DNA of 64,000 bases from Blasia pusilla (Eukaryota), in the NCBI GenBank assembly GCA_050084515.1, contig CM114271.1, positions 20,770,001 through 20,834,000 of the forward strand. The letters run 5' to 3'. Below the pieces are notes generated by a model. That model was given only the letters and a program-made list of their open reading frames with translations. It had not been told where the DNA came from and did not search any database. Of this stretch, positions 1 to 50,387 are shown one piece after another. Numbering within the stretch: the first letter of the stretch is position 1; each line of letters begins with the position of its first letter. The translations under genes were made by a program, and so were the position numbers.

Positions 1-1816
1 TCCACACACCCAATATCCCCAAATAAACTACCCAAATCCCAGAATCCCTCACACGTGCAGGGTAAAGGACCAGAATGGGTAACCTGAACACATGTCGATG
101 TCGCTCCTCATAAACTATGAATCTCGACCCCAACTCGTTCGTGGAGACAACTCCTCCAATCAGCAAGTCATACTCCTCCCGTACTGACGTTGCTCAAAAC
201 TCCTCGATAGACGGTGCAGTTCCAGCGGAACGGTGCGCGTTGCAGGCGGCACGGAACGGCATGGCCCTCGATGATGGGATGCGGCACTCGGCGGCATACC
301 CTCCTCAATCAACAATAAACCCACACTCTGCTCCACAATGCCAGAGCGGCTCCGCGATCAAGACGGTGCGGTATGGCCACGAGCGGCACGGCGCGGCAAT
401 CGACGGCGCGTTGCGGCTACGGGCGTCACGGCACGGTACCCAATCTTCGTTGAGCGGCTACCAATCACAACATAGCAGCAGGAAATCAAAACTCAAACAC
501 TATAACATGAGGTCATATGCCATCACAGGTTGATGACGGTGGCGGCCAAAACAAAGTTCGTGATGGCCACGCAAGTCCGAGAATCAACGAACGTTGTGGA
601 AGACCCTCCACTCCGTAACGGTGGCAATAGCAACCAAGGGTGGAAAACGGAAGGTGGACCATTGACGGTGACGGTTGACCGTTGATGGTGACGGACCAAT
701 GGTGACAGTGACGGTTGACCGTCGAAGGTGAAATTTTACCGTTGACGGTTGACAATGACTATGACGGCGACGGACGCCGCCGGTGTGGCGGCTGGTTTAG
801 GGTTTGCACAATTTAACCCTAAAAATTTCCTAGCAATGGCAGTATTGCACAGCGTGCACAGCTTCACGATCTATGCCAGCATTAAAAAATATTTGGAATC
901 GGACATTCCAGTAAAAACTGACAGGGATTGTTGTAAAGCCCAATGTCTCTTTCTTCTACCCAACATTCGGCAGCGCTTCCGCGCTGATTCCTCCCAAAAT
1001 AATTGTAAAACCTATAAAAATGCAAATCAGCAAGCGACATGGTGCTCCCGAAAGCACCGGCATGGGGCAACCCGCCCCCATACTCAATCCCTATCAGAAA
1101 TTGGGCAGCGCTTCCGCGCGCCACTCTTTCACACGAAAAATCGGCAAATGCAACGAAAAATCCAAGCAACCCTTGCTCCGATGAGCACTCCCATGAGCCG
1201 TTGAATGGGGAACACGGTCCCCAACCTACAAAAACAACGAGTGACCAGCGAGCTCCTCCATGAACCTCTCTCACTCTCTCATTCTCGCATTCTCTCTTTA
1301 TAAAGTAAGATTCAATCTCTCTCTACACAATCTCACACCATAGCTCTCAAAGGTGTGCACTCTCTCTCATGTCAAACCAAACCCACTCTCCTAATGAAAG
1401 GCTTGGGTTACACTCACAAGGCAAGGGACCATAGCTCCGCCGCCTCATGCCAAGAGGTTCAACAAAGAGAGAATGAGCTCTCAAGCTCTCTCTCCTTGGG
1501 ATATATACTCCTCCCCTCTCCCAAGCTCTCTCCATGGTAACCTATTCTTCCAAGTCACCTCTTTGGCTCTTGACCTGATGTAGGAGGTCAAGGGCCACTT
1601 ACCAAAAATAGAAAGTCGATCATATACTCAAAATGGTACTTACCTAAAATGGTAAGTTCCTCAATATGGTTCCAAATGAGCCAAAACGAAAGGGAAACCT
1701 ACTCTCTCAGGTTTCCCGGGGCCTCAGCAAGTCATCCTCGACCTCCTAGGCCTGTCCTCCACTACTCTTGAAGAGGCTCTACTAGATCTCATCGATCTAT
1801 CCTAAAGGACGTGATA
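1..1816 (-). mobile_element. 5' end of a second copy of the split-repeat Gypsy family: repeat A (1816-1301) plus leader region running off the window start
   Basis: Reverse complement of 1301-1816 aligns by eye with 19662-20176, 27227-27744 and 30125-30637. About 760-1300 aligns with the leader at 20177-20755. It starts TATCAC (consensus TGTCAC). Confidence 0.85.
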
Positions 1817-1835
1817 GGGTCTTTTCAGTTTACAT

Positions 1836-2180
1836 CTTGTTCAAAGACCTCATCTTGATCTTAAATTAAGGAAACTTGCTCCTCAAGCTGTATCTAGAGT
1901 TATAAGAAATTTTTAAGAAAAAATGGAGTTGTGATCAAAAGCCCAAAAATATTTAAATGATTTTGCAAACCTACGCAATCAAACCTTGTAGAAAAAGAGA
2001 GTCTTTCTACTTTCCATCTTCTTCAAGGACCTCATCTTGACCTGAAATTTTGGAGCCTTGATCCGCAAGATATATTGAGAATTCTTGAAAATTTTCAAGA
2101 AAAATGAAGTTGTCACCAAAAGAGTAAAAATATTTGAATGGTTTTAAGTACCTCGCATGGAAACCTTCTAGCAAATAAGA
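1836..2180. repeat. Two diverged tandem copies of a ~182-bp unit
   Basis: cttgttcaaagacctcatcttga... at ~1836 and cttcttcaaggacctcatcttga... at ~2018, colinear through aaaatattt..atg and aaacctt.tag. Confidence 0.7.
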
Positions 2181-3350
2181 ATTCGGCCCTTGGTAGAGTC
2201 CACGTAGGAGTTAGACGTGCAACAACATTGAAAACAAAGAAAAAATGCGTGCAGTCATAAATGTGTGGGGCTAAAAAACTGGAAACATGTAGGTAAAAAT
2301 TGTAAGTGCAGTAAAGAGGAAAATGCGTGCAACGTGAAAAAGTGGAAGTCGATAGGTAAAAATTGCAAGTGTAGCAAAAATATGGAAGGAATAAGTTGAA
2401 ACGGATGCACGCGATAATGAAGTTTGTGGGCAACGAGGTTGTGTTGGCATGAACTGAGAGTATGGATGTGGTAAAATAGGTAGGCTTTGTAAAGGGCCTT
2501 GCTTCATCACTTGTATGAGCAGGAGAGTATATTCAAAATAGCTAAGCCGTGGAACTCGAGTCTATATAGGTATGATCACTACTGTATATTAGCTCAATGT
2601 ATCCATGGTCATGAGATGGCAAACTATTATGCTCATTGTTGTACAGTATTTCAATGCATCTGTAGCCATGAGTTGGTTAACGTAAACCAAGGTAGTTCAG
2701 AGCGAGAGGTGATTTTAAAGAAGCAAGTATAGAAATTGTGAGCTGCAATATAAAATGGAAAAACTACAAGAAATTAGGTAGTTGAATGTCCTTTAGTAGA
2801 ATATATGAAATAAGTCTTTCTACATGATAGGTGAGGACTGAAACGTGAAAGTAGTTGCGGAATGCAAGGGCGTTGTATCGACAATAAGTTAAATTTGTAT
2901 GATTACCACGTTATGAGATGATTTAGAGAATATCAAAAAGCATCTACATCACATAATTAAATGCATCAACACACTGCAATAAAGTTCATGGGACAGCAAG
3001 CAGTAAACTTGTGGATAAGAAGCATAAAAATCGGAGTAGTTATAATGAGAATAAGGCATCTCGCATGCTTTACCTTGGCTTAAATGTAAGAGGAACCAAT
3101 AAAATTGCTAGTATGCTACAGTAAAGTTGTCATCGTTGCTTGTAGTAAAACTACAAGCAACGACGACAACTTTACTGTAGACAGAAAATGCAACAACAAT
3201 TGGGGGCATGGGAAGAGCAAAAACCAGAGTTGAGATTGGGGAAGTAATTTATAGGCACAGAAAATTGAGTTGGACATGGTAAGCCAATTAAATGTACTGC
3301 CCATAGCTATGTTTGGTGGTAGCAGTACGATACTGCTTGATGGTGCACAA

Positions 3351-4945
3351 CTATTGGAGGGCGACAATCAGATTATGTAAGTCGAGATTAGCTGGACATT
3401 GGTGTAGACAATGTTTCTCAAGGATAGCGTTGATTTGTTGGCGGAGAATGGCAATCTTGTCGACATTGTAGTCATGCTCCTTAGTAACTGATTGCATTAC
3501 TGTACATAAAATATCATTGTGACGCACACTATCATCGAGACGGTCTTGCACTATTCCAATATTATTGAGAGCTTCATCAAACAGTGTGATCGGAACGATG
3601 TCATTGTTGTAGATCAAGTCTCCCATGGGTGGTAGCTCAATCTTTGTGCTACGTGAACGTTTTTTTCTTTTTTGTCTTGCATAAATGCTTACTCTGCGTG
3701 AAGAAGGAGTATGGTAGCTAGATATCTTGGAGCAAGAACCAACACAACTATTAACAATGCTCAATTGTGTATTGTTGCAAACTTAGAATTGTGGACAAAT
3801 TGAAACACGTTGTAAGTGATACGAAGCATATAGTAGCAACTTGAAGTAAATATTGAGATATTTTAACGACTGTCAAATCTATCAACACTTAAACATGTGA
3901 TCACATGGTTGTGTGTGTCCAAGAGTAGGGGAAATGAAAATGAGGAAACTCACATGAAATGCAGTAGCTCCAAAACAAAAGAAGGAAATCGTAAAGAAAT
4001 CAATGTGGAATAAATGTGCTAGCAAAGCCAGAAGTTATCTTGAAAATTTTGATAAAAACTTTTTCTCTATAGCTGATTGAAACGTGCTGCCACATGAATG
4101 AAGTTGGTTAACAAAATTCTATGGGCCGATACAACCGGTAGTGAAGTAGGTTTAGCCTTGTGTCAAGTATGTCTAAGAAGAATTGAACAATCTGACAAGA
4201 AAAAAATTTTGAATTCAGCATCACTTTGCTCAATACCGGAATAATGTAGGTAGGCCAAATGTGGAAGCAAATGTGCGGGTACACGTTCAACAATGATCTT
4301 GCAAGCGTTGCCATTTAAAGATATGTTAGAGGCAATATAAGGTTTTAGTAAAACAGAATGTGAAACAATTAAGGATGTGAAAATCAGTGGGCAGTAAGCA
4401 TCAGGCTTACAAAGCACATATCTGGCGTCATATACACTTCCTCTTGTTTGGTGACTCTGATTATACAACTTGGGTCCCTGGTAGCTAGTTCCCTAATCGT
4501 ATAAGTGGGAAGCCTGAAAGTGTTCCGACTGTGTAGCACCCAAGGTGAAACTTGGTGAGCCTAAGTGGCCACTAGGAAGAGGAGTGAGGTTTGCAATCGC
4601 ATTAACAATTGTACCAACTTCTTTGGCAACTTTAATCCATTCAAGTAACTGAGCAGCTTTTGGAGACAAAAAAATTATCATCCTGTTAATAGGTAGCTTC
4701 ATGAGTACGCGCAACTCCTGAAATTGATCAGGCGTAATGCCCCCACTTAACCTTGAGTAGTGAACGGAAGCCTCTTGACGTGTTAGTTCGGCTTCATTAT
4801 ACTCAATATTTTTGTAGCTCACAATCTCCTTTTGAATCCCTATAGCAAATACATAACAATTACTGATGTCAATGAGTGGCAAAAGAACCCATTGAAAATT
4901 GCACCTATGATTTTTTACTTGTAAAAAAAAGGTGCAAGAGAACAC
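3351..4945 (-). pseudogene. Disrupted coding-like region of unknown function (probably TE or virus cargo)
   Basis: ORFs 4493-4945 and 4163-4468 are in the same frame, separated by one TAG. A probable frameshift at an A/T run near 4200 leads into 4108-4314. A further 137-aa ORF lies at 3351-3764, and TATAAAA is on the minus strand near 5025. No recognisable motif. Confidence 0.35.
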
Positions 4946-9480: not shown

Positions 9481-11321
9481 TAATTTCCTTTTCATTGTAA
9501 AATCTGAAACAAATTTAACAATAACACTAGTGGTTGGTCAATGAGGCGAGCCACCCCCACGACGTATCAGCGGCAAGGCTTGTGCACCTTGTAAGGCCAT
9601 TGAGATGCATTGTTGAAAATAAGTAGTAGCTAGAGAGAGAGAAGGATTACGGGAAGGGGCAAGGTGATGATTCTCGAGGGAGTGGTGAGTATATGTTTTC
9701 AGGAAAGTATTAAAAGACACTTGTAAATGACCAAAAACTTCAATTGCAAAAGGAATAAATCCATCAATCGCATGACTCACAGCATAACTTAACTCCTTGA
9801 TTCTTGCTGGTGCTTTGGCTGCCGAACCTTTGGTGTGTATGGCTCGATCGATACACCAAATCAGAACGTGTTGGATCAGCAACCACCACATCACTTAGTG
9901 TATGGAATCCCCCTCGAGACATAATGAGATTACTTCTTCGACAAGAGGTTGTTTGTGTGGTTGAAGGAGGACATGGATTTGCTCTTGCTCAACGGTGTAT
10001 CCTGCTGTACGAGTCACCAATGCTATTGCCTCTCTAATGGCATCATATGTGGTCATTTTTTCTCCACCATAAGCACATCGAAGAATATGGATACCCTTTG
10101 CATCAATAGGATCCCCGCATACACAATTCAACACACCTAACAAAGAAGGATGAGGAAATCCAAGGCGTGACCGCAAAGCTATCGAGAATATACTTCGAGG
10201 AAGACAAAATGGAAGAATACGAGGATTTCCAATTATCCACGCCTCCGCTCATGTACCTAATCATGAACACAAAAGAGCTCGATTAGCGTAAGAGGATGCC
10301 TTTGAGAAAATCCTAGAAAGGTGAATTTGGTGCAAATTCTTAGAGATATGCTCTTGAAGTCAATCAAGCCCTTCCGTCATCAATTGACATAAGGTGGTAG
10401 AATTTTTGTGTAGCAAGAGGAGGAAGAGCTCGGGCATATCTCAATTGTTGTTGAAATAAGAAGTCCCCCTCCTCTACATGGGCGACATGATCCATCGAGA
10501 TAGGTGTATCTCCTTGGAGAAACCTTGAAGCCATAATCGGTGCTATCAATGCCCAATTCTCCAAAAAAGTTGTTGGAGCAGATGTGACTATGGAGGAAAG
10601 CCCCACGCCTCCAAAAGAAATGGGCAACATCGATTGTCATGAATCCAAGACACCATCCTCTTTCTCAAATGTATTTGGGCCAAGAAATTGACCAAAAGTT
10701 ACCACGATAGAAGCGTAAAAAGAGACCAACCGATATAAAAACCTTCAAGTGGGAGGACAAGTGCGACGAAGGTAGGAAGGACGTCGTAGAAAATACTGGG
10801 AAAGAATCCTATAAGCCACTTGGGAATCCACTAGATGAGGTAATAAATGAAGTCATCCCACGTCTTTTAAAAGGGCCTTATCCAAGAACTTTGAGACATA
10901 GTCGATGAAGCCAATTGGGACCCCAAGAACCCTAAAACCTTCAATGGAAATGGGAAAATCAAGAGTAGGTGGGGGTGAATGTTTAGGGAAGGCATGAAGG
11001 AGATTACACTTGATATTTACTAAGTTGGACTTTAAGGGTTAAGAAAGAGAGTTGCTCCAAAATATGGGTGTAAGCTAGGAGGGACCACTTCAAAAAGGAG
11101 GACCTATAATGTGAGTGTCATCAATAATAAAAGGGAAAAGACAAGATGGAAATGCTTGGGTTGGTGCTCGAAGGGCACAAAAATGGGGAGTGGCAAAGAG
11201 TTGGTCACCCATGGGATCACCTTGACACGCGCCACAAGCTGATTGGAGAATACTATATTCCCCGAAATTAGTAGGATGAGAATAGATAATGGGCGCATCA
11301 TAGGCATAGAAGTGCACCGAT
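9481..11321 (-). mobile_element. 5'-truncated, decayed non-LTR retrotransposon with RT and restriction-like endonuclease (CRE-like)
   Basis: Minus-strand fragments in order: GACQGDPMG..LF and FIIDDTHIIG (RT), LPISFGGVGL, RLGFPHP..CVCG...GIHILRC (CCHC zinc knuckle), FIPFAIEVFG (RLE C-terminal motif). Many stops and frameshifts. Confidence 0.8.
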
Positions 11322-11357: not shown

Positions 11358-14300
11358 GCGGTGCATCCTCAATCAACCTTCCTATCATGGGAAACATCCC
11401 TCGATGTAAAATAGTCGCAAACATCTCCTCGCTTATTATTGATTTTCTAGGATACAACCGAGATACTTCCTTACACACCGACATGCAATAATAAATATCT
11501 TCACTAAAGCCAAGGGTTTGGTTTATCTTAAAACGTTACAAGATTTCATGTAAACCTAAGCCCAAAATATCCTCACGATCATGTTCTACTACTATATTCA
11601 TATCAAAAATCCACATATATCCATGTGGAACTACCAATGTCTTCCCCACAAAAAGTATTACATCCCTTAAAAAGATGTTGAGCCTTTTTTAACTCTAAAG
11701 TAAATATTTCTACAAGAGTTGTCTCTACAACGATGGGCTTCTCCTTCAATCTCTCCGAGTGGACATACAATCTCTCCAAGTGAACATCTTGTTGGGCACA
11801 AAATGCATTTAATATCGGCCTCTTTGGCATCAAGTTCTTGGTTTTATGCCTTTGAAACTCTTAGAAATAATCTTTGCAATTCCAAGGTGAAACCATCCAT
11901 ACCCCTCCAAATGTAGGATCTTCTCTTCTCTAATGTAAGTTGGAAAAATCAATTTAGCCATGCCTCTCTTACAACCATGTTTAAAGTCATTCCTCCAATT
12001 GACTCTTTTCCTCTTGTAATTAGCATTGTCACTAGACTCCATTCGGTTATCTCCCGCTCCAATGACTTAGCCCCAATAAACATATAGCTCAGAGGAAGGA
12101 GATAGGAAGATTTTCTACTAAACCAACGAAAGAAATCTAAAGATAGAAATTAGGAAGTACCAAAAGTATAAAAGTCCGTAATGCTACAACAATGGCTCGA
12201 TCATTATACACAAACGTGGTTGATGGAATGGGGGATGTAGGTATTGGTTTTAGCACTCAAAAGGAATATATGCGTGCTTAGTTTATTTTCCGTGACCACC
12301 TCCAAATCCACGTCAAGATGCTAAATAAAGTCAATGAAACAAATATAAATTCGAGACCGTGAATCGAATATTTCAAAATCACCAAACAAGTTTAATGAGA
12401 CGAGCAAATTCCAAACTAAAATGTGAAATAAATTAGAATTTGTTGGAAACACAACAATGAATACAAAAATCCAAGTTGGTCAAAAAAAAATTTAACTATC
12501 TCCAAAGGCATTTATGAAATTTGGGGAGTAATCTAAAATTAATCCTACTCTCAACAGATTTCATTTTCTCGATGGTCTCTTTGTTGCAACTCCCACAACC
12601 TCTAATAGGGCATCTCGACTAACCTCCCTTAGTAAAGAAAATTCCCTAGGCCTCATACATATGGCCAAACTTCCATTAGAGGTCAAATTTTATCTATAGT
12701 CAAGTATGAGCTCTCAAATTTTTGCTAGTCCAATTCTCCATGGCATAGAATTTAGAGAGGCAGCGGCACCTAGACTGGTTCTCAAGTCAAATGGAAAGAT
12801 TTCGCTCCTAAACTAGCTCACATTCCGACGGATCCAGCGTCATAACATTTGATGGTCCTCCGGTGTACTTCAAGAGGAAATGTACGTACTCGTGAATTCA
12901 TGGAAGACCAAATTCAGTCTACATAAACTCGAATAAAAGCCTTGCAGATCGGGTAATCTCTTCATGGTTCGAGCTCGATCCTCGAGGAATGAGCAGTCTA
13001 ACCCTCGGAAACATAAATCAGCGCAACCCTCCTCCTAGTGCTTCGGTATTCTCAATTATGGTGGACAACACTCACAGCGTCGTGAAATGTTTGGATGCAC
13101 TGATTTTCTTGCGGGTATTCTCGAGGAGATTCGCTGGCTCCGATCCTCTTCTAAATGCAGTAGTCCCTGCACGGCTTGCAATCTCATTGAGGTATGTAGC
13201 TTTATAACAAAGAAACCGATCAGCAATGTAGCGTGCTGATAGACACACGCCTGCTCCTACAATCTCTTTCGTGATCGTGCACTCACGCTCCTCCTTCAAT
13301 TACTGCCTAGTCCCGAATTAACTTGAATTGCGCCATCACTCATTCTGATAAAGAGGCTAGATTCCGGAAACCGTGCTTCATAAACCCTGCTACAACTCTG
13401 CTCACAAGCAATTTCCAACTCTATATCAAAAATAGCACAAATCTCGTCCATTTGATACTAAGGAGTTTAGTTGCAACAGCTCGACCGTTTGCTAAACGAA
13501 ATTCCGTCCTGTTCAAGGACGGGTGTTGAAGACTGCAAAGTTCACGTCTTTGAGGTACTCAACTCCTTCCGCAGCGATCCTTCTTTGTGCTACATCGAGT
13601 CAGGAGCAGCCTACAAAGTTTGTGTGCAGCCAGAACTTTACGACCATTCATCTTTCCTCTGGGATTTTCAGTACATTACGCATCAAGTAGGTCAAGGATT
13701 TAAAGAAATTTGGTGGAAACAGCGGTTGGAACCGATTGTGACTGGATTAACAATTACTTTGGCATAGCTTCGTTTTAAAATATTTGTGGCCGCCAGTTTG
13801 CAGCATGCAGATTAAACCCCCAGGAAAAGCAAACGCTCATACCTTCTGTCATGAATCTTTACGACTTTTCTGGCTTCCCCAACTTTCTGGTCATCCATTT
13901 ATGTTACCACATCTTCAGGTCGATCTGGCGATGACAGACTTCCTGTGCTGCGCAGTAATTCCTGAAATTGAGAAACAAGTAGTTGAGATGCAAATTGAGC
14001 TCTGTAAGTAATCCCAATTCAGGCACTAACAGATTTCATCTCATTGTCTATCTGCATCTCAATTACACATCTGTGATTGAGATGCGAAGAGAAAATCGGA
14101 AGACTACTCCTAAATGTGTCGATGCAGTGTCAATAGCCGTGGCTGCTACTTCTCAGGTTCTACTTCTCAATACCGAGTGACTCCCGATTCTGACCTTAGG
14201 ACTACGGGCGTAGATTCTAATCATCAGACTCCGATAGAGGAAATTGTTACCCGCGAATTTTGTGAACTTTCAGCATGTTTCACTATTACATCACACACAT

Positions 14301-19025: not shown

Positions 19026-19661
19026 TTAGTTTGCACATATGTAAGTTCCTCGGGGCAAGAGTTGGAAGGATGAGTGCAAGCTAGCCCTCATTCTCTCATG
19101 GAATTTACATTGCGAAATACTATGGGGCAAGGGTGGGGAGTGCGGACATGGACGGAAAGTAGAAGGAAAAGAGGGCAAGGTTTGACGGAAATGGACAAGT
19201 CTGTCCATGGGCATGTGGACCCTGCGCACGCTATGTGAACGGTCCCTACGGGCCTCCAAACGTTTACAGTGTGCAGACTCTAAACGTTCAATCCTTGCCC
19301 ACATCTGTTTCCACGTCTCTCGCCCCACAGGCGACCAGGATACCAAACATGGATGCATAAAAAGTCCATCCCTAGGAAAACATGGAAGGACAAGTTTAGA
19401 CATGTCCACGGACATAGATTACAAGAGGAGGGGCCCATATATACTTATAGTTTATGATGGAAAATAGGGCAAGGTTGAGTGGGACAATAATGGGGGAGGG
19501 AGTGGAGGTGGAGGGAGGAAGAAATGGGAAACTCGAGAACATGTAGATAAGTGGAGGGGGAGGGGGGAGGGTTAGACCTACAAGAAGGGGTGAGTGGGGC
19601 CCATATGGATAATTCCTTCCATAGGACGGACGTAAGTCCACGGACATGGACATGTTTGTCG
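19026..19661 (+). mobile_element. hAT-type MITE-family sequence interrupted by the Gypsy insertion (resumes at 27873-27904)
   Basis: GGACATGGAC/GTCCA-rich sequence similar to 40464-40759. It continues after 27872 as gccgacacgaactttatccatatgcaacattg, matching the family's right end. The left boundary is uncertain. Confidence 0.7.
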
Positions 19662-20176
19662 TGTCACGTCTTTTAGGATATATCGATGAGATCTAGTAGA
19701 GCGCCTTTGTGAGTAGTGGAGGACAGGCGTAAGAGGTCAAGGATGACTTGCAAAGGCCCTGGGAAACCTGAGAGAGCAGGTTTCCCCTTCGTTTCGGCTC
19801 ATTTGGAGTCATATTGAGGAACTTACTATTTAAGGTAAGTACCATTTTGACTATATGGTCAACTTTCTATTTTTGGTAAGTGGCCCTTGATATCCTACAT
19901 CAGGTTAAGAGCCAAGGAGGTAACTTGGGAGCATAGGCTACCATGGAGAGAGTTTGGGAGAGGGAGGGGTATACCTGAAGGAGAGAGAGCTTGAGAGCTC
20001 ATTCTACCTTTGTTGAACCTCTTGGCATGAGGCGGTGGAACTATGGTCTTGCTTGTCTTGTGTGTGTAACCCAAGCCTCTCATTAGGAGAGTGGATTTGG
20101 TATGATATTGAGAGAGACCTGTGAGAGTGCACACATTTGAGAGCTATGGTGTTGCGAGAAATTGAATCTTGATTTA
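19662..20176 (+). repeat. Repeat A1 (contains putative TATA region and TSS near 20001)
   Basis: Direct repeat of 27227-27744, sharing diagnostic indels (atggtcttgcttg, gaatcttgattta) not found in the copies at 1301 and 30125. Confidence 0.9.
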
Positions 20177-20188
20177 CAAAGAGAGAAC
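20176..20188 (+). promoter_or_regulatory. Putative self-priming primer-binding site
   Basis: ACAAAGAGAGAA(C) is complementary to the family consensus ATTCTCTCTTTGT at the predicted TSS. No TGG-type tRNA PBS is present. Confidence 0.6.
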
Positions 20189-23600: not shown

Positions 23601-23859
23601 AATCAAATCTCCATGTGGCAAGACCCAAGGAGATTGATACACCAAGGGTGATTGGGAGAGACACCCTTGGACTTCTTGGGATGTTTTGTAGATAAGCCAG
23701 GAGATGGTAGCCACAGCATCAAGCGTGGTTGCGGGTACTGCACATGGAGATTTGATTTTGCAGTTGGTTGCAGAAGAGCAGTCGAGTTTCGTTGTTCGAG
23801 ACGGGGTTGCACCATAGCAACCACCTACACCCGCGTTGGAGAGTCCTACCATAGTCACG

Positions 23860-26780
23860 ATGGAGACATGGGAGCTTGATATGGGTCCTAAGATGACAAG
23901 AGGAGAGCGACGCTGGATACATCGTTTCCTTAGGAGTCATAGGAGTTGTTTTGCATTTAACATGTAGGATTTGGGTAACCTGATGGGTCCAGGGATCCGC
24001 ATTGAGTTTTCAGTGACACCTCGATCTTCCGACGACCCTACAGGTATAGTGACATGGAGAGGGCTCTGATTCAGAGTAGGAGCCTGGACTTGGTTGGAGC
24101 AAAACTAGTGGAGATGTCACATGGAGAGTATGCATTTGCCACTGTCATGCCCGCCAAGAAGGATGTGCATGGCAACAGGACAGATAGGTGGATGTGTGGA
24201 GATTACCGATCTATCAATCAGTGGACAAAGTCCGATAGATATGCCATATCCACTCTTGAGGAGATCTTTGATGCTATTGGGCCTGCAAAGGTCTTTAGTT
24301 CATTAGATCTTCGAGCCGGATACCATCAGCTGCCTATCAGATTGGAGGACAGGCAAAAGACGGCATTTTGGGGCATCAATCCTCACGAGAAGGATTGCTT
24401 GTACCACTGGCGGTTCTTACCATTTGGGTTAAAGAACGTCTTGGATGAGTTTCAAAGGGTCATGGATAGGATCTTGGCAGGTCTAGATGCTGCTAGGTGT
24501 TATGTTGATGACATCCTTGTCTTTAGCGTCACCGTTGATGAGAAGGAGCGACATCTAGAGGAGGTCTTTCGAAGATTATAGTTACATGGGCTGAAGCTAC
24601 ATCCAAGCAAGTGCAATTTTCTCTACGACCAGATTGAGTACTTGGGTCATACGATATACCCAGCTCGTGTTGATGTGCAGCAGATGAAGGTAGAGGTTAT
24701 TTTACCCATTCTACGCCCTACAGATATGAGTCGAGTTCGTGCATTCATGGGATTGGCAAACATCTATCGACAATAAGTCAAGGGTTTTAGCTCGATTGTG
24801 AAGCGGCTGACCTTGCTGACCAAGGTGGATCAGGAGGGGCAATGGGAGGATGAGCAGGAGAGAACATTTCACATGCTCAAGGATAGATTGACGTCCGCGC
24901 CCATATTGAGGATACGATGAGGGGGCGTCCTTTCTAGTTGCATACGGATTGGAGCATGTTCGGGCTTGGAGCCGTGCTCACCCAGCATGACGATGATGGT
25001 AGAGAGTTTTTGGTGGCTTACTCTAGTTGCTCAAACAACGTTGCAGAGGCGAAGTATAGCTCGTATGAGGGTGAGTGCTTGGCTACAGTGTGGGCTATCA
25101 TACATTTCAGATGTTATCAATCCGGAAATCCCTTTACCATCATTACTGATCATCAGCCGCTCAAGTGGTTGATGGAGTCTGATAAGCTTACATGGAAGCT
25201 TGCGAGGTGGGCTCTTTTGTTGCAGGAGAATGATTTCCATGTGGTGCAAAGACCCGGGATGCTCAACCAAGATGCAGATGGTTTGAGCCATAACCCATGC
25301 ATGAGTGAGCGAGATGCGAATGGAGCTTGTTGGCATGGTGAGAGTGATGAGGAGTTGGTGCCAAGATGGCATGCGTCAGCCTATTTGAGCTTGTTGGCTA
25401 TGGAGAGCCAGATTGCTGAGACTTCGATGTCAAGCTCTAATGTAGAGTCCTTAGATCCAAAGGCCGATGAGGAGACGACAAGTGACCGAGACATTCACGA
25501 TGATGGATTGGTCTTGAAGAACCTCCATACTAGAAGTATCGCGAGCACAGTGGGTGCTAGAGAGTGGGATCGGATCTTACAACAAGCCAAACAGTTTCGG
25601 TGAGAAGGCATACATGTGTTGCGAGTGTGGGAGGATGGTAGAGTGCATGTAGTGCCTCATCCTTTGCAGGGAGCACGTTTGGTGTGTCATGCCCACGAGG
25701 AGTTGGGTCATTTTGGAGTGAAGCGGACGTACATCTTGCTCCAGATTCAGTATTGGTGGCGAGGCATGCAGACTGACGTTTAGCGGTTTGTTGCCTGATG
25801 CATGGTGTGTGATCGAGTCCGAGCATCGTTTAATGCTCCGACTCCAAAGCTGCATCCACTTCCGATCATGGGTTTAGGTTATAGATGGATTTTGGATTTT
25901 TCAACACCTTTGCCTTTGACGGAGCGCCATTATCGCTATGAGTTGGTGATGGTCGAGCAATTCTCGAAGTAGATAGAGTTTGTTGCATTTCCTGACAAAG
26001 CGAGTGAGAGAGTAGCGTATGCCTTCCTAGATTGGGTGCTAAGTCATTATGGCACACTAGCTAAGGTGTTGACAGACCAGGGTATAGAGTTCCGTGGGGA
26101 GTTTCAAGCCTTGTGTAATCAGGCATTGATCGACCATCGCACTACTTCACGAGATCATCCTGAGGCGGATGGACTAGCGGAGCGGGTTGTGTAGATGGTG
26201 AAGAGAGGACTACGCAAGTATGGGTTGTAGAGAGGTCACCTAGGAGATTGGGACCTCCAATTGCCGTGGTTGGCGATGGGATACAGATTTAGCATATAGG
26301 CATCCTTAGCGTCTTTCTCATCGTACTTGCTTTTGTATGGTCGAAAACCAAATTTACTTGTGGCCATTCGTCAAGATGTTGGTGAGGAGTTGAATCTTGA
26401 TGACCTTCATGTATGGATACAAGCATGTTCTCAGAGGGCTGAATTATTTCAGAGATTGATGCCCATGGCGTTTGAGAACTTGGCGATTGCAAGCATGGGA
26501 ATACATTGAGGTATGCAACTATACGGGGAGGTGGTTATCTACCTACTATCTAGAGGTTTCATCAAGGAGACTATGTCTACTTGCAGCAGACGGCAGCCAC
26601 ATTGTTGGATGTGATTGCATGGTGCACCATCTTGAGAGTGCGTGAGGTTTTGCCATCACGTGTTCTCTTATTGGAGGGACGCAATGGTATGGTTTGGAAG
26701 GACCCTATGCGTAACTGTGCGCCATGTCACCTTCCGAACATTGACAGTATAGTTGATGCGAGCTTAGCAATAGTTCATGC
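23860..26780 (+). pseudogene. Gypsy pol: RT, RNase H, integrase (disrupted)
   Basis: RT: MCGDYRSIN, LDLRAGYHQL, KTAFWG, LPFGLKN, YVDD. RNase H: HTDWS..GLGAVLTQ, ECLA, TDHQPL. INT: H..H..C..C near 25690-25810, LTDQGIEF, DGLAER. Confidence 0.95.
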
Positions 26781-26790
26781 AAGCTTGCAA

Positions 26791-26931
26791 TGTATGTTGT
26801 GTGGTTCTGCCCGCGGTGCAGCCACTATCCTAGTCTGTGATGGATGTTCGAGAGGATAGCATATGGCATGTTTGATGCCACCTCTCACTAGGGTTTCTCA
26901 GGGATGATGGATGCATCTTAGATGTACATAG
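26791..26931 (+). pseudogene. PHD finger at the C-terminus of the integrase
   Basis: CMLC-x11-CDGC-SRG*HMAC-LMPPL...WMHLRC, i.e. C4HC3 spacing with premature stops. Confidence 0.85.
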
Positions 26932-27098: not shown

Positions 27099-27111
27099 AA
27101 GTAGGAGGGCG
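27099..27111 (+). promoter_or_regulatory. Putative polypurine tract
   Basis: AAGTAGGAGGGCG directly abutting repeat B1. Confidence 0.6.
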
Positions 27112-27872
27112 ATTGGAGATATTTTGGTACTTTTTGTGTAGTTGTTTGGATGTCATGAGTAATCATGGGATCGTGTGTGTTTGTGTGTTTGTGTTCAGTG
27201 ATAGCGATGTGTATGCGCACGACAACTGTCATGTCTTTTAGGATAGATCGATGAAATCTAGAAGAGCGCCTTTGCCAGTAGTGGAGGACAGACTCAAGAC
27301 GTTGAGGATGACCTACTAAGGCCCTGGAAAAACTTGAGAGAGCAGGTTTTCCCCTTCGTTTCGGCTCATTTGGAGTCATATTGAGGAACTCACTATTTTA
27401 GGTAAGTACCAGTTTGAGTATATGGTCGACTTTCTATTTTTGGTAAATTGCCCTTGATCCCCTATATCAGGTCAAGAGCCAAGGAGGTGACTTGGGAGCA
27501 TAGGTTATCATGGAGAGAGCTTGGGAGAGGGGAGAGGTATACCTCAAGGAGAAAGAGCTTGAGAGCTCATTCTGCCTTTGTTGAACCTCTTGGCATGAGG
27601 CGGCGGAGCTATGGTCTTGCTTGCCTTGTGTGTGTAATCCAAGCCTCTCATTAGGAGAGTTGATTTGGTTTGACATTGAGAGAGAAATGTGAGAGAGCAC
27701 ACATTTGAGAGTTATGGTGTTGGGAGAGATTGAATCTTGATTTAATTGGAGATATTTTGGTACTTCTTGTCTTGTTGTTTGGATGCCTTGAGTTAGCATG
27801 GGATCGTGCGTATTTTTGTATGTGTTCAGTGACAGCGATGTATGTTGTGTACCGATGTGTATGCATAGGACA
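27112..27872 (+). repeat. 3' repeat block B1 (27112-27224) - AC - A2 (27227-27744) - B2 (27745-27872)
   Basis: B1 and B2 both begin ATTGGAGATATTTTGGTAC and end ...GACA; junction CACGACA-AC-TGTCATG. Confidence 0.9.
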
Positions 27873-28546
27873 GCCGACACGAACTTTATCCATATGCAAC
27901 ATTGCTACAAAGAAACCCAAGAGGGAGACCCATTGGGTGTGTTTGTCCCATGGACGGTAAAATTTGTATTGGTTGCAACCTTGATATGTTCCCATGCAAC
28001 TTGGTTAAATCCCTCTTTATTTTAAATTTAAATGCTTTCCATCGTTATGCCTCCATCTCAATTAAAAAAAAAAATTTGGACATACCCTAAAATAGTCCCT
28101 TCCTCCCTCTTCATCTCTATTACTTAGGGAGAATAGCTTCTTGAATTGCAAACACCTCTTAAATTAATTGACGCATGGCAATAAGGTAGCAAGAAAATGT
28201 TTTGGTAAAACGGAAAAAATATGAGTTTTAATCATTATTGGTCTCATGTATAGCACTAGATACACACTAGTTACTAATAACTAATAATGCATAAAATTTT
28301 ATTTCTTATTTTAAATGCGCTCTTCATAATTAATGGAATCGTGGAAAAATAAACTAGTTTTAGTGAGATATTGCTTCTTGAAAGGAAGGGATTTCTTTTG
28401 GAGGAAATTGCACCTTAGGTATATTTATTTAGTTCATCCTTCTAAAAAAAAGTAAGAAGATACAAATTTATTTCAATTTAAAAATATTGAACCCATGGAG
28501 AGAAAGAAATTTTCTCTTCTTTGCAGGAATAAACATGTTGTCTTCA

Positions 28547-29141: not shown

Positions 29142-31310
29142 TTAACCACATAGGTCAACGTGTATCGTCTCTAGAGGAGCCTTTGCTCTATTGCTGGACT
29201 CTTGTGGAGTTGGTCGTTGGTGTTGCTTGCCCATCATACAAGCTTCACATGCATCCAACACTCCAAAAATTGTTGGTAAATCAGAAACCATGCCAGATTT
29301 CTGCATCTGACTCAGTAAGGGAAAGCTTAGGTGACCAAATCTTTCGTGCCACAACTTACTACTACCAAGATCTGTATCTACACTTGTCGCGAAATCATAC
29401 AACTCGTACATATTTCCACGCCGTATATTTCATCCACTACTTTCCCATTGGCATCCTCAATGACTGCTCCAAATTTCTTAAAACAAACTTGTAAGTCGCG
29501 ATCACATAATACTGCTACTGAAAGTAAATTGCGCTTCAACTCTAGTACACACAGTACGTCAATTAACTTCTTTTCATCTCCTTTTTTTGAGACTAAAGAA
29601 ATTGTGCCTTTCCCTTCTACATAGCACTTTGCATTATTCCCAACTGTAACAACAATGGGCTCTTGCAGAGGCTATAAGGAGCTATACCAATCCTTATGAT
29701 TGGTCATATGCCTATAAGCTCCACTATCGAGCACCCATGCATCTTCACTCTTTGACTTAGTGGAATATTCTACCTGTGTGCAAAACTCTTCAATTGCTAC
29801 GCAAACATCCATCTCCTAGCAAGCATTCTAGTTCTACAGAATTTCTATACCCTCTTTTAGGTCTTAAAAAACCGTTCTTCTCATCCTAACTCCTCTTTCT
29901 ACAATCTTTGATAAGATGACGTAGCTTACCATAATCTAAGAATTTGAAAGCTTTCATTGGAAAAAAAATTTCTTGATATTTGAATTTTAATCATGATTTC
30001 TACCTCCCTGTACGTTGGTAGTAAATGCTGCATCACTTCCCTCTCTTGCTTTGAAGTGTATTTCCTCTTCTACCAACATTGCACTAAATTGTTCAAAAGT
30101 AAGCGACGTGGGTCTTACTTGAGTTTTCACGTCTTTTAGGATAGATCGGTGAGATCTAATAGAGCGCCTTCATGAGTAGTGGAGGACACGCTCAGTAGGT
30201 CGCGGATGACTTGCTGAGGCCCCAGGAAACCTGAGAGAGTAGGTTTCCCCTTCGTTTCGGCTCATTTGGAGCCATATTGAGGAACTTACTATTTTAGGTA
30301 AGTACCATTTTAGTATATGATCGAATCTCTATTTTTGGTAAGTGGCCCTTGACCTCCTACATCAGGTCAAGAGCCAAGGAGGTGACTTGGGAGAATAGAT
30401 TACCATGGAGAGAGTTTGGGAGAGGGGAGGGGTATACCTGAAAGAGAGAGAGCTTGAGAGCTCATTCTCTCTTTGTTGAACCTCTTGGCATGAGGCGGCG
30501 GAGCTATGGTACCTCGCCTTGTGAGTGTAACCCAAGCCTCTCATTAGGAGAGTGGGTTTGGTTTGACATGAGAGAGAGTGCACACCTTTGAGAGCTATGT
30601 TGTGAGATGGTGGAGAGAGAGATTGGATCTTACATTAATTGGAGATATTTTGGTATTTCTTGTCTCGTTGTTTGGATGCCATGAGTTAACATGGGATCAT
30701 GCGTGTTTGTGGGTGTGTTCGGTGACAGCGATGTATGTTGTGTAGCGATGTGTATGCGCACGACAGAATATTCAATGCAGTGACCAAACTGTCATACCTC
30801 GGAGGCAAAATCCTTATGCACCGACGTGCCAAATCTTCGCTAGACTTTGAAATTCCTACGGACGCCATCTGATCTTGAAGAGTCTTGATCCTCATCAAAA
30901 ATTTCTCCACGCTTTCTCGTTCTGAAAATTTCTCAAACATAATCTAATTCTCTAGATTCTGAATCTGAGTCTCATTCCTGGTTGCATACTGATTCTTTAG
31001 AATGTTCCACACCTTAACAACAATGGTCGTAGTCATGACAGAATAGTTAGTTACATTTGTGAAAATTGCATATAGAGCATTAGTGTTTCCATGCCAGCAA
31101 TACTTCACGATTGATATCACCAGAGAAAGATGAACATGCAGAACTCAAAGTAGCTTTTGGATTCAAATCGACCCTTGTGGTCGTCTCCCATATCTTCAAT
31201 TATTCGAGGATAGTTCTCATTTTGAACTTCCACAATGTATAGTTAGACCCATCTAACTTTCCTTCATCCAGCGGAGGAGGGCGAACATAATCTGACGAAG
31301 AAGTAGCCAT
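29142..31310 (-). mobile_element. Truncated Ty1/Copia gag-protease-integrase start
   Basis: ATG 31310 MATSS..KLDGSNYTLWKFKM (gag), LPPRYDSLVTAL, WVLDSGA..HMT (protease, ~29720), LWHERFGH..CEAC..GKQH..IHVDLCG (GAG-pre-integrase / INT start). Confidence 0.92.
30125..30765 (+). mobile_element. Solo A-B unit of the split-repeat Gypsy family inserted in the Copia gag
   Basis: A 30125-30637 directly fused to B 30638-30765; ends CACGACA; 4-bp TSD GAGT/GAAT; removal restores Copia frame ALNTQVRP. Confidence 0.9.
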
Positions 31311-44038: not shown

Positions 44039-47000
44039 TGTCGCGACCCTCATAACCAAACAACACCAAATACGCGCCAAGCGAAACATCAGAACTCAAA
44101 GGAACTCACGCCGCGAGGTTTGCGCTTTGGAGAGGCGTTTGGAAGAGTCTCTTGGAAAAGTCTAAGAGACGTAAACGTGGAACAGAGTTGTGCGTTTCAT
44201 GCGTTAGTGGTCGCGACCAGGAAACCTAGACCAAACGCGAGCCGAGACTTGAGATGAGTTGAGTCTTGGAGGTTGGTTGCCAAAGAGGTGAGAACCAGTT
44301 TGGAACACGGCTAGCGTTTGGGAGAATCTGACTGTGTTTAGGACCATAACGTTGAGCTCCGAGATGCGTTCGGGACAAGTAAGGACGCGTTGGAAAGCTG
44401 ATCTTGAGACGCTTCCAACGCACCAAAGATCTCAGCAAACGCATAAGTACAGGCTGAGATATTGGCCGAAAACGATTCAGAGAGCAATCGGGTTGAGGGC
44501 CAAGTGGTGTCTTCCCCTAAATGTAGGGGGCCCCGGAGATCCCCAGAAGTAATAGTAGGGGAGTACCTTCTCTGAGATGTCTCGGGAAACGAAACCCCAC
44601 TTTGGGCGCCAAACGGCGTTTGAGGGCAGATGAAACGGGAGTTTGGCGCTGAAACCCAAACCCAAACCTGATCCAAGGGAGTGGACTTTGTATGCCACAC
44701 TTGGATTCCAACCGAGATTCACGTGAGAGTCTTGGTGAGGAACTCATTGGATGTTCATCGGACGATTAGAACCGCTTAGGCGCGAAACGCCGTTTCAGTT
44801 CCTGAACCGACGAAAAGTCTGTCCCAAGTCTTTCGAGACTTGCCCGTGTTGGAAACCGCGAAACTAGGAAGGTTGAGCTTGAAGAGAGAGTCCGAGACGA
44901 GAACTCGGAAAGTAATCCCGCTGATTGATCCAAGACCCGACTAACCGGTGCGTGTTTGGATGCAGATTAGCGTTGAGAGCGTGACCTCAACGCACGCTTC
45001 GCAACAAACAAGATTAACGTTCAAGGAGAGTAGGCGCACGACACGTGGTATCGAGCAATTCCTTGATGAGCGTGAACTTAGGTCGTTGAAGATCTGGGCG
45101 TTTGGGGAGAACTCAAGGTAGCCGGAAGACCGCGACGCCGAGGAGGAACGCAAGAGGCGAGGAGGAGATCTGAGAAAAGGCGACGACTTCGCAAATGGCG
45201 ACCAAGGGCGAAGAACCGAGAAACCGCGAGTCAAAGCAAAGAAGCCAAGAGCGAATCAATGACGGACCGAGAGCCGGAGGTGGAATTTGCGACTCGAAGT
45301 GCCGAGTCCCAGACATGAGGATGTTCCAACCGAAAATCTTTCGCGGGACCTTCGGGTCCAAACTTAAACGATCCGGCCTTTTATACCCAAATGATGGGAT
45401 TGATGAAGGTGATGGCGGACCAGATGGTGAAACAGAGCAAGGTGATCTCGAATTCAAGTCAAATGGAGCCTCTAGCTCGGCAAGAAGCTTTGTAAGACTA
45501 ATTTGCCAACGCCATTCACACAGAATGGGGCGTTCTCGGAAAGTGAGCGAAGTTTCTAACGGAACTCGAACTCTATTTCGAGCGCAAAGGCAGATGAACA
45601 AGACAAGGTGATCAGAAGCGGTCACGTTTACGAAGGATCACGCTCTCCATTGGTGGACGGCTCACCGGAAAGAACATCTAGGTCGTGGGAAAACGTTGAG
45701 TTGGGAAGATTTCAAGGAGTTGATTGGGAACCGATTCACTCCGGAATATCAGGAGTACCGCGATGGCATGGAGGTGGTGAGGTTGCGCCAGAGTGGATCA
45801 CTTGGTGCTTATGTGCGAGAGTTTAGTGCGCTCATGAGTGCACTTTCCACGGACGAACATACTAAAAAGGTGATCTTCCTAAGTGGGCTCAAACCGAGTG
45901 CCGAGAAGGCTCTCTTTCGTATGCCTCACATCCCAGAGACGTGCGCGGACCTCTTGAGACTAGCCGAGCGGATTGGGGACGATGAGGTCCAACACCCGAA
46001 ACCCTTTGAGACCAAAAGTTTTTCTAAGTTCTGAGAAGAATAAAGGGACATCCAAGAGGGTTTGGAATGGGGGTGAGCGCGACCACGGAGGGTCTCGCCC
46101 AAATGGCTAAACGAGTGGAACTCAACGCTGAAGCTTTAAGGGCCGCCGTTCTGACGAAGTCAACGAATGCCAAAGTGATTTGTTATAATTGTGGCGAACC
46201 CGGGCATATGGCTAAGGAATGTGTGAGGCCCAAGGTTAGTAAACCGAGTATGATTGCGTTTGCCGCTAAGCATTTATCGGAGGGAGATCTAGATACATCT
46301 CTACAAGTCACCAAGAGGACGCCCAATTTGGTTTACCTAGGATCCAAGATCGCTAATCGCGATGTGATGTTGCTCGTTGATACAGGTGCTTCGCACTCAT
46401 TCTTGAGTCCGAGAATCGTAAAAACGTTGGGATTGCCAACCACCAAAGCGGATGAACCCATTAGGGTAGGATTCGCGGGAGGAAAATCCCACCAGACATC
46501 AGATCTGGTTTTAGGGCTAGTTGTGAGATGCGGAGTATTTGAGTTGAAGGAGAATTTTCTGATTTTGCGAGATGGACGGTATCGACGGAGTCTTGGGAAC
46601 ACGTTCTTGGATGCGTATGAGGTGGAACGAGGCGGAGACCTTTGAGGTTAAGCGTCTTGGTTAACGGCAAACGGATGGACGTCAGATTGGTTCGTGAGGT
46701 GCCTAGAAAGACGGAGTTGGTGAACGCCATCACGAGGACGAGTTTGGCGAGTTAGAGGAAGGATTCCTTTGCTTGATGAGACAGTAGAGGATGATGCAAG
46801 CGCAAGATGCAGAGATCAGAACTCAGCTTCAAGGGAGATCCTGAAACACTCAAGAGAGTTGTGAAAGAATTTGAAGATGTGTTGACTAAGGAGCTTCCGA
46901 CTGAGTTGCCACCACATAGGGCGGTTGATCATAAGATTGAGGTGATACGGGGATCTCAACCACCTTCAAAGGCACCATATAGGTTGAATCAAGAGGAACT

Positions 47001-50000: not shown

Positions 50001-50387
50001 GATGAGTCTGTCTTGGGGTTTGTGGTGATCTCATTCATGTTTCATGACTGAACTTAGTGACGCGCCTAGGTGGAATACAGGTGACCCAAAAGTAGTACTG
50101 AGTTGGCTAGGTAGACAAAGGTTGTTTACAAATAGTGAGTGAAGTGTTAGGTTGCGGACTTAGTGAGCTTATTTTGATAGTTAGATTAGTTTGGCGTAAC
50201 TAGTCTAGGCTCATCGTAAAGCGAAGCTAATAAGTCTAAGTGCTGCAAGCGACAAACCTAAGACTTAAGCCAAAAAGAGGAATTGCGGGTTAGCTACCAG
50301 AACGCGATTCTGTGTTAAGGGGTCGGCTTCCCAGAACTTAACATCAATAAGGTTTGCGTTGATGAGGACATCAACCTTCTAAGGAGG
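44039..50387 (+). mobile_element. Ty3/Gypsy chromovirus, 3' LTR deleted
   Basis: 5' LTR 44039-45043 (TGTCG...CGACA); PBS TGGTATC(A)GAGC 45046-45056 (initiator Met tRNA type); zinc knuckle CYNCGEPGHMAKEC, protease LVDTGASHSF, RT YIDD, RNase H TDAS, INT, chromodomain ~49500-49690; breaks within the PPT. Confidence 0.95.

Follow-up and report, generated by a model that had tools for sequence, protein, structure and literature searches.

The stretch of DNA analysed here, called the window, comprises 64,000 nucleotides of Blasia pusilla (contig CM114271.1 of assembly GCA_050084515.1, positions 20,770,001 to 20,834,000 of the forward strand). It carries copies of a retrotransposon family for which a first-pass annotation, made from the letters, had proposed that reverse transcription is primed by the 5' end of the element's own RNA and is independent of transfer RNA (tRNA). 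A full element lies on the plus strand, and the 5' end of another lies on the minus strand near the start of the window, its body running out of the window. Judged by its coding region, the full element is a decayed Ty3/gypsy-type retrotransposon. Reverse transcriptase (RT), RNase H and DDE integrase follow one another in the Ty3/gypsy order on the plus strand between two copies of a repeat, A2 and A3, with Pfam matches to RVT_1 (3.4e-16), RT_RNaseH (2.2e-29) and rve (1.4e-4, which is under the curated cut-off). The related protein P0009 (1033 amino acids; RVT_1, RNase H, H2C2, rve and PHD) aligns end to end over 23824-26928 with 57-62% identity, and the frames of the window pol are disrupted by many stops. 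Among the 52 protein relatives listed, the closest named ones belong to the liverworts Calypogeia, Riccia and Marchantia, followed by Closterium and Klebsormidium. The PHD finger PF00628 occurs in relatives, no chromodomain is listed among the 52, and a Pfam search found no tyrosine recombinase (PF00589) in them or in the open reading frames of the window.

The repeat A of the first-pass annotation is a real repeat, of which four copies of about 515 bp were located by self-BLAST and a four-copy alignment, but it is not a whole long terminal repeat (LTR) and appears to be merely a part of the repeat made by reverse transcription. A second repeat, B, is about 115-130 bp long. With the target-site duplication (TSD), the leader K, the polypurine tract (PPT) and a two-base spacer (NN), the integrated full element reads TSD-A-K...coding...PPT-B-NN-A-B-TSD (Table 1). 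A holds a TATA-type promoter motif. TGTCA[C/T]G at the A start and ..GCACGACA at the B end make up a TG...CA inverted repeat which is kept across lineages, and the junction between B1 and A3 reads ...CGACA AC TGTCATG.... Duplications of 4 bp flank the units that run from A to B, namely GTCG/GCCG around the full element and GAGT/GAAT around a solo A-B unit, so that TG..CA ends and a short target-site duplication are present as in Ty3/gypsy elements. The left flank of A1 is unrelated to the flanks of the other A copies. The leader K is common to A1 and A2 and starts with [C/T]AAAGAGAGAA.

A DNA pattern derived from repeat A had 0 matches in metagenome contigs, and relatives were found by an alignment of the RNase H-region protein, which yielded 80 metagenome loci with 42-72% amino-acid identity. 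Two of them, L048 and L071, are full elements with the same layout and with repeat sequences unrelated to those of the window; a P0009-type pol (rve plus PHD) aligns along the window, L048, L071, L067 and L060. The split direct repeats of the DIRS order (A1-coding-B1-A2-B2, numbered within one element) are thus found in the window, L048 and L071. Self-comparison of the 46 loci that extend at least 1.5 kb past the match listed a B-A-B part downstream of pol in 17, of which 11 are convincing after removals. L074/L075 were dropped as AT-rich false positives; the B-A-B of L067-L069 is a tandem repeat about 6.5 kb downstream of the match, and that of L008 is doubtful and was left out of the 11. L031, a telomere-like tandem repeat, was likewise discarded.

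None of the 15 upstream copies of A (the L048 family contributes 11, the window 2, and L071 and L067 one each) has a B before it, and two equal terminal repeats with a PPT before the 3' one, as expected of a Ty3/gypsy element, are not found. In the L048 family the 11 upstream copies begin at TGTCATGACC, each with a different left flank, and the downstream copies are preceded by ..CGCACGACA plus 2 nt in 8 of 8 cases and then followed by a B start in 7 of 8. The tract CTAGGGGGG[C/T]G stands immediately before B1 in all six copies of this family with a located B1 start, and a PPT directly precedes B1 also in L071, L060, L036 and the window. Five different flanks follow the B2 ends of the L048 family. 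The target duplication is exact in L048 (AAGG/AAGG), and three of four letters agree in L071 (ATTA/ACTA) and in both pairs of the window. Three simpler definitions of the LTR could be ruled out. A alone fails, as B immediately precedes A3 and follows both A3 and A4. B+A with truncated 5' copies fails, as all 15 upstream copies begin at the same base and each has a different flank. A+B with an ordinary body fails, as K begins after A at one exact base in all upstream copies and the PPT precedes B.

On the minus strand of A1, the motifs of the first-pass annotation are present as described: TATATAT at 1507-1501, CTCATTCT with its A at 1474, ATTCTCTCTTTGT at 1474-1462 and ATAAAGAGAGAAT at 1301-1289. 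The alignment of the four A copies places ATAAAGAGAGAAT at the point where the likeness among them stops. The two 13-mers pair at all 13 positions (12 Watson-Crick pairs and one G-T pair), and C1475-G1288 is a 14th pair of this helix. In 13 of 2000 dinucleotide shuffles of A1 and, in a second run, in 3 of 1000, the 22 nt that follow A could form a helix of 14 bp or longer. The duplex energy of -18.6 kcal/mol was matched by none of 500 shuffles. No TGG-type tRNA primer site adjoins the repeat, as had been stated, the first TGG lying 34 nt (A2) or 42 nt (A1) downstream of A. An Rfam search of window positions 1-2400 had no match, and ARAGORN found 0 tRNA genes in the window and 0 in 26 relative loci. 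TATATAT itself is peculiar to A1; the remaining three A copies read GGTATACC at this place.

The second element fits less well. ACAAAGAGAGAA is indeed present at 20176-20187, but the claim that the positions fit at both ends does not hold, for the A2 element pairs at 10 of 13 positions with two internal mismatches. The site of the proposed RNA start (R-site) reads ATTCTACCTTTGT in A2 and ATTCTGCCTTTGT in its partner repeat A3.

The first-pass annotation had suggested a comparison of subfamilies for compensatory changes, and with the relatives this comparison was positive. In four further lineages both sites differ in sequence from those of the window and still pair, a stretch of 11-17 nt that adjoins the 5' A being complementary to a site 22-32 nt past the TATA box (Table 1). 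Counting the window, the distance of this site from the TATA motif is 22-32 nt, and that to the end of A is 126-186 nt, in five of five lineages. For the window family and L048, control duplexes across lineages are clearly weaker, ranging from -9.3 to -12.8 kcal/mol for the window against -18.6 for its own pair and from -7.6 to -9.6 for L048 against -24.5. In the ten 5' copies of the L048 family, 87.1% of cells pair, versus 34-50% when the partner is slid by 1-3 columns. Three pairs (5 cells) of this family are altered on both sides, and compensated pairs occur in L030 (two) and in L074/L063 (one). When RNA was folded from the site to the post-A sequence, the 5' end paired with the post-A sequence in six of six relatives, covering all four lineages, with a mean probability of 0.79-0.97.

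Table 1 Features of the elements in the window and pairing sites and repeats of four related loci. Positions refer to the window or, in the last six rows, to the locus named.
Feature	Position	Strand	Basis or remark
Leader K after A1	845..1300	-	77-81% identical to the leader after A2
Proposed self-primer binding site ATAAAGAGAGAATG, immediately 3' of repeat A	1288..1301	-	Pairing
Repeat A, copy A1, 5' repeat of the element whose body leaves the window start	1301..1816	-	Begins TATCACG (consensus TGTCACG), ends ...CTTTA
R-site, proposed RNA start, (C)ATTCTCTCTTTGT	1462..1475	-	Starts 29-32 nt past the TATA-like motif; pairing and shuffles
TATA-like motif TATATAT	1501..1507	-	Sequence and copy alignment; other copies read GGTATACC
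Left target-site duplication GTCG	19658..19661	+	3/4 letters shared with GCCG 27873-27876
Repeat A, copy A2, 5' repeat of the full element	19662..20176	+	TGTCACG...GATTTA
R-site of A2, ATTCTACCTTTGT	20001..20013	+	10/13 positions paired with 20176-20188
Proposed primer binding site of the full element, CAAAGAGAGAAC	20177..20188	+	Sequence and pairing
Decayed pol: RT, RNase H, integrase zinc finger, DDE integrase core, PHD-type finger with an internal stop	23824..26928	+	Pfam and P0009 alignment
Polypurine-type tract AAGTAGGAGGGCG	27099..27111	+	Immediately before B1; relatives arranged alike
Repeat B, copy B1, ATTGGAG...GCGCACGACA	27112..27224	+	85.9% identical to the other two B copies
Two-base spacer AC between B end (..CA) and A start (TG..)	27225..27226	+	[A/G][C/T] in relatives
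Repeat A, copy A3, 3' copy of the full element	27227..27744	+	Self-BLAST and alignment
Repeat B, copy B2, abutting the last base of A3 exactly	27745..27872	+	Followed by GCCG, right target duplication, 27873-27876
Solo A-B unit (A4 30125-30637, B 30638-30765)	30125..30765	+	Within a minus-strand copia gag gene; flanks GAGT and GAAT
L048 repeats	A 1676-2017, 10350-10691; B 10238-10350, 10693-10805		Self-comparison
L071 repeats	A 2543-2840, 12165-12464; B 11985-12165, 12454-12634		Self-comparison
L048 pair: A site AACATAGTTCTTTGAGT, post-A ACTCAAAGAACTATGTT	A site ~27 nt after TATAAAG		17 nt exact, -24.5 kcal/mol, 0/500 shuffles
L071 pair: A site TAGTTTTTCTA, post-A TAGAAAAACTA	A site 30-32 nt after TATAAAAG; post-A two bases past A		11 nt, 2/500 shuffles
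L067 pair: A site ACTTTTGATGATT, post-A AATCACCAAAAGT	A site 28-30 nt after TATAAT		12/13 pairs, 254/500 shuffles
L036 pair: A site ACATTCTTGTCAAGT, post-A ACTTGACAAGAATGT	A site 28 nt after TATAATG		15 nt exact, -23.6 kcal/mol, without shuffle comparison

Three stranded RNA runs that carry the same species label as the host were mapped to window positions 1000-1900 at 85% likeness. The depth is about 130-400 over the whole of A and about 25-70 over K, and the transcripts of the family appear to be sense to the element, as read from the first-mate strand under the usual convention for stranded libraries. Among the listed ends, loose read ends occur at 1814 (74, 143 and 87 reads in the three runs, agreement with the B-end consensus 0.65-0.77) and at 1817 (20, 59 and 24 reads, agreement about 0.92). 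These loose ends at the A start continue into the reverse complement of the B end; therefore the B-NN-A junction is a regular part of family transcripts. Minus-strand position 1300 is C and not T in 28/30, 16/16 and 26/26 RNA reads and in a DNA depth of 11899 of 14327. With C in most family reads, the G-T pair of the A1 helix would become a G-C pair. In the contigs of the DNA run X1, the summed word depth is 2.5e5-1.1e6 for the A core (1310-1681), about 1e4 for K (1000-1300) and 5e3-2e4 for the first 130 bp of A (1682-1774). The A core seems far commoner than full elements in this run, word depth not being the same as copy number.

From these observations a possible replication pathway can be drawn. 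Minus-strand DNA must begin at the first base after A, because the K-side and B-side copies of A diverge there, and complementarity to the expected transcription start is the sole conserved feature at this base. The promoter in the 5' A would direct initiation about 30 nt past its TATA motif, which in the window means at ATTCTCTCTTTGT. With its leading 11-17 nt the RNA would then fold back on the complement that begins at the first base after A, it would be cut as in Tf1 of fission yeast, and the resulting fragment would prime minus-strand DNA, making a tRNA unnecessary. The plus strand would be primed by the G-rich tract just before B1. With a purine tract before B1 and a primer site after A, the repeat made by reverse transcription would be B-NN-A. 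The integrated order would thus be a permutation of the usual two-repeat DNA, whose linear ends would be linked through circle formation or an end-to-end template switch; the exact joint of A end and B start would follow from end joining of linear DNA. Integrase would cut the built-in CA-NN-TG junction upstream of K with a 2-bp stagger and leave ordinary processed integrase ends. We infer the first three steps, up to the plus-strand primer, from conserved complementarity and position, and the last two, the repeat and the permutation, solely from the junctions. On the strength of the pairing kept in relatives, which supports the self-priming and tRNA-independent reading of the first-pass annotation, we believe that the pairing is probably a self-primer site and that the element primes its own reverse transcription without a tRNA. 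The RNA start itself was not seen in the RNA runs.

Several results count against a self-primer. One of the two elements in the window has a broken helix. Its A2 duplex is no better than shuffles (280/2000 by helix and 139/500 by energy), and since A2 and A3 are both mismatched, the full element probably carried the broken helix already when it was inserted. The predicted RNA fold of the window family has 0 helix pairs at minimum energy, and the 5' end pairs with the post-A sequence with a probability of 0.07 in A1 and 0.47 in A2; the fold avoids the helix because a second GA-rich stretch in A competes. Among the relatives, the pairing of L067 is not significant by itself (254/500 shuffles), and in the AT-rich L071 and L067 the control duplexes equal the lineages' own pairs in strength. 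Covariation within the L048 family is weak (0.170 versus 0.140, reached by 32/500 shuffles), uncompensated breaks occur in L018, L015, L012 and L037, the best duplex of L030 is located elsewhere, and a second A site in this family can pair with the post-A sequence as well. The three RNA runs gave no transcript start at 1474, and no peaks of molecule starts or ends were listed for them. Coverage does not change at 1474 either, the depth upstream (about 130-400) being equal to that downstream. A modest step could be hidden because reads of the 3' copy also cover the promoter half of A, and the RNA data leave a start at 1474 neither confirmed nor excluded. None of the 15 upstream copies shows the alternative order A-B-NN-A-K..B; both orders would be expected from a circle that is opened at one or the other junction, and the permutation step therefore needs a directionality that is unexplained. 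Finally, a tRNA fragment may be the primer.

The mismatched A2, the weak L067 and the competing GA-rich stretch are what would be expected if the complementarity were chance in a GA/TC-rich repeat and the matches of the relatives a low-complexity coincidence. A general scan, in which 11-mers were matched with their reverse complements 100-230 nt off, points the same way, with 21 matches in 161.7 kb versus about 5 expected by our estimate; most of them lie away from the element ends, and no convincing new lineage came from it. However, the duplexes of A1, L048, L037 and L074 were reached in energy by 0/500 shuffles and that of L071 by 2/500, and the sites of L048 and L036 are not of low complexity. 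In five of five lineages, moreover, one side of the pairing lies 22-32 nt after TATA and the other runs from the first base after A. Chance pairing in a GA/TC-rich region was the caution of the first-pass annotation itself, and we regard it as very improbable.

In the L048 family, a second stretch of A, CTAGATTCTTTGAGTG (L006:3860-3880 and other copies), is also complementary to the primer site. The first site was lost from L006 by a 33-base deletion. At window 1475-1500, L048:1835-1860, L036:8820-8860 and L067:3220-3250, the proposed RNA start lies within the 3' arm of a hairpin, and the primer-site sequence recurs in the 5' arm. The arms are CTCAAAGAAC-ATAG-TTCTTTGAG in the L048 family, CTTGACTTGACA..TGTCAAGTCAAG in L036 and CTCAAATCA..TGATTTGAG in L067. 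RNAs begun further upstream could sequester the site by way of this hairpin.

A hairpin that repeats the post-A sequence, as in the L048 family, L036 and L067, suggests a structural role, and the pairing may be real and conserved without being a primer. Packaging, dimerisation, translation control or template switching could make use of it as a 5' panhandle or promoter-proximal structure, and minus-strand DNA would then be primed at the same place by something else, such as a tRNA half or another small RNA. The RNA-seq runs, which map no transcript start, leave room for such a role, and tRNA halves prime some plant copia lineages according to passages of Neumann 2019 (PMC6317226). Against this, the post-A sequences of the five lineages have no motif in common, whereas a primer derived from a host tRNA would be expected to keep one. 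In every lineage the first base after A, at which the 3' end of a primer has to lie, is also the start of the complement, and the complement's length of 11-17 nt fits primer sites. A role other than priming by the element's own RNA seems unlikely to us.

Two relatives carry unusual arrangements of these parts. At L022:3243-3880, the post-A primer sequence comes after a downstream A (3361-3698), and next to it A recurs in reverse complement, from the transcription-start site back to the A start, up to GGTCATGACA adjoining the host flank. The structure looks as though a strand with A and the primer site at its end had folded back on its own complementary site, been extended and become integrated with the inverted A start as an end. 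At L036:8553-9317, B stands before an A copy past pol, and what comes after this copy is the primer site and leader-like sequence, not B. The arrangement resembles two elements in tandem. At its end the contig has 130 very GC-rich bases, which may belong to another organism.

The repeat order could also reflect DIRS-like replication, in which B-NN-A would be a template that restores missing cDNA ends and closes the circle, the pairing would aid a template jump, and the G-rich tract would be no plus-strand primer. The layout is that of PAT/Ngaro-type elements as described in parts of PMC7192593 and PMC5890265, and split direct repeats are otherwise described mostly for tyrosine-recombinase elements (excerpts of PMC7192593; literature search). 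B-NN-A also resembles a circle junction. The DIRS-order PAT-like and Ngaro elements share the order A1-coding-B1-A2-B2, but they use a tyrosine recombinase, whereas the family studied here encodes a DDE integrase, has TG..CA ends and makes 4-bp target duplications, and a tyrosine recombinase was not found in the proteins searched. We know of no target duplications of such a kind in PAT-like or Ngaro elements. In every lineage, furthermore, the G-rich tract lies before B1 and the complementary site after A, the two places that define the reverse-transcription repeat of an LTR element. We consider DIRS-like replication quite improbable here.

A wider scheme that joins the self-primer to the repeat layout is put forward only tentatively, and we hold it to be doubtful. 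It would comprise a bryophyte and streptophyte-algal clade of gypsy elements with DDE integrase that have a self-primer and a B-NN-A repeat with its own attachment site resembling a circle junction; the ends would be joined, CA-NN-TG would be opened and a circular permutation would be integrated. In retroviruses, two-LTR circle junctions arise when DNA ends are joined, and they mostly lead nowhere. The built-in ..CA-NN-TG.. junction found here, flanked by inverted repeats, looks like a circle junction, and differs from the retroviral one in being encoded within the reverse-transcription repeat, in its 2-bp spacer and in marking the ends of integrated copies.

Self-priming is established for Tf1 of Schizosaccharomyces pombe, in which 11 nt serve as primer and RNase H cuts between nt 11 and 12. 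To our knowledge, it has been demonstrated only in this fission-yeast element. As in Tf1/Tf2 and the Tf1/sushi group, the sequence after the 5' repeat is complementary to the element's own RNA start (a proposed one here), over 11-17 nt in our lineages. The absence of an adjacent TGG-type site, the gypsy-type gene order and the DDE integrase are also shared with Tf1/sushi. The differences are an integrase with a PHD finger and not a chromodomain, the split repeats A-coding-B-NN-A-B, and priming and cleavage that are only predicted here.

The idea of self-priming is not new to plants, since it has already been predicted for other plant lineages. In the passages of Neumann 2019 that bear on it (PMC6317226), self-priming is predicted for 12% of plant elements, these being the Tcn1 clade (chromoviruses of moss and club-moss) and TAR (Ty1/copia). 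For a Selaginella Tcn1 element, no primer site was found according to an excerpt of Novikova 2010 (PMC2864245). Like the family in the window, Tcn1 and TAR are plant LTR elements, some of them from bryophytes, without a tRNA-type site and with a predicted self-primer. They differ in having ordinary LTRs and, in Tcn1, chromodomains, and those passages of PMC6317226 mention no lineage with PHD finger and split repeats.

The nearest described counterpart is KnitGypsy-Dnmt3 of Klebsormidium nitens, for which the legend of Fig. 4c in de Mendoza 2018 (PMC5890265) gives a DIRS-type repeat structure with typical Gypsy domains. The same combination of gypsy domains and DIRS-like repeats is found here, and a K. 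nitens protein is a relative with 41% identity and with the Pfam domains listed for P0040 (RT, RNase H, H2C2, rve and DNA methylase). Upstream of RT, three metagenome relatives (L048:5828-6669, L071:7683-8639 and L067:7636-8591) contain a cytosine DNA-methyltransferase region, which corresponds to residues 1-326 of P0033; Pfam DNA_methylase scores 3.9e-4 in L048, under the cut-off, and is also listed for Marchantia and Klebsormidium relatives. The window element differs, as it has no match to residues 1-326 of P0033 and hence no methyltransferase in pol. The parts of PMC5890265 that concern KnitGypsy-Dnmt3 do not discuss primer site, polypurine tract, junction, target duplication or replication route. 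A literature search found this name in de Mendoza 2018 only, and no report of a self-primer site, of the position of the polypurine tract or of a junction analysis for the lineage; the per-element tables of Neumann 2019 may bear on this point. What is new is the candidate self-priming signal in gypsy elements with DIRS-like repeats, both kinds being known separately.

Other repeats of the window lie outside this argument. Directly upstream of A1, positions 1816-2180 hold two tandem units of about 183 bp that are 75.7% identical. The solo A-B unit interrupts the frame of a copia-type gag, and copia-type gag, protease and integrase fragments are found on the minus strand at 29142-29671 and 30766-30943. 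Two inverted copies of another gypsy-type element, 44192-50382 and 58218-63800, are 72-79% identical and have RT and RNase H matches at 46930-48020 and 61319-62479.

In plants self-priming has so far been merely predicted, for Tcn1 and TAR (passages of PMC6317226). The present lineage offers conserved, co-varying candidate primer pairs, and it would extend self-priming to another integrase tail and another repeat layout. With a PPT before B, a primer site after A and integrase-type ends at the A start and B end, it also raises the question of how a DDE integrase inserts a permuted copy. If the tentative scheme is true, a retroviral-type integrase would normally act on a joined or circular intermediate, and the DIRS-like layout would be a case of convergence. 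Such elements will be overlooked or wrongly annotated by LTR finders built around a tRNA site and a pair of equal terminal repeats.

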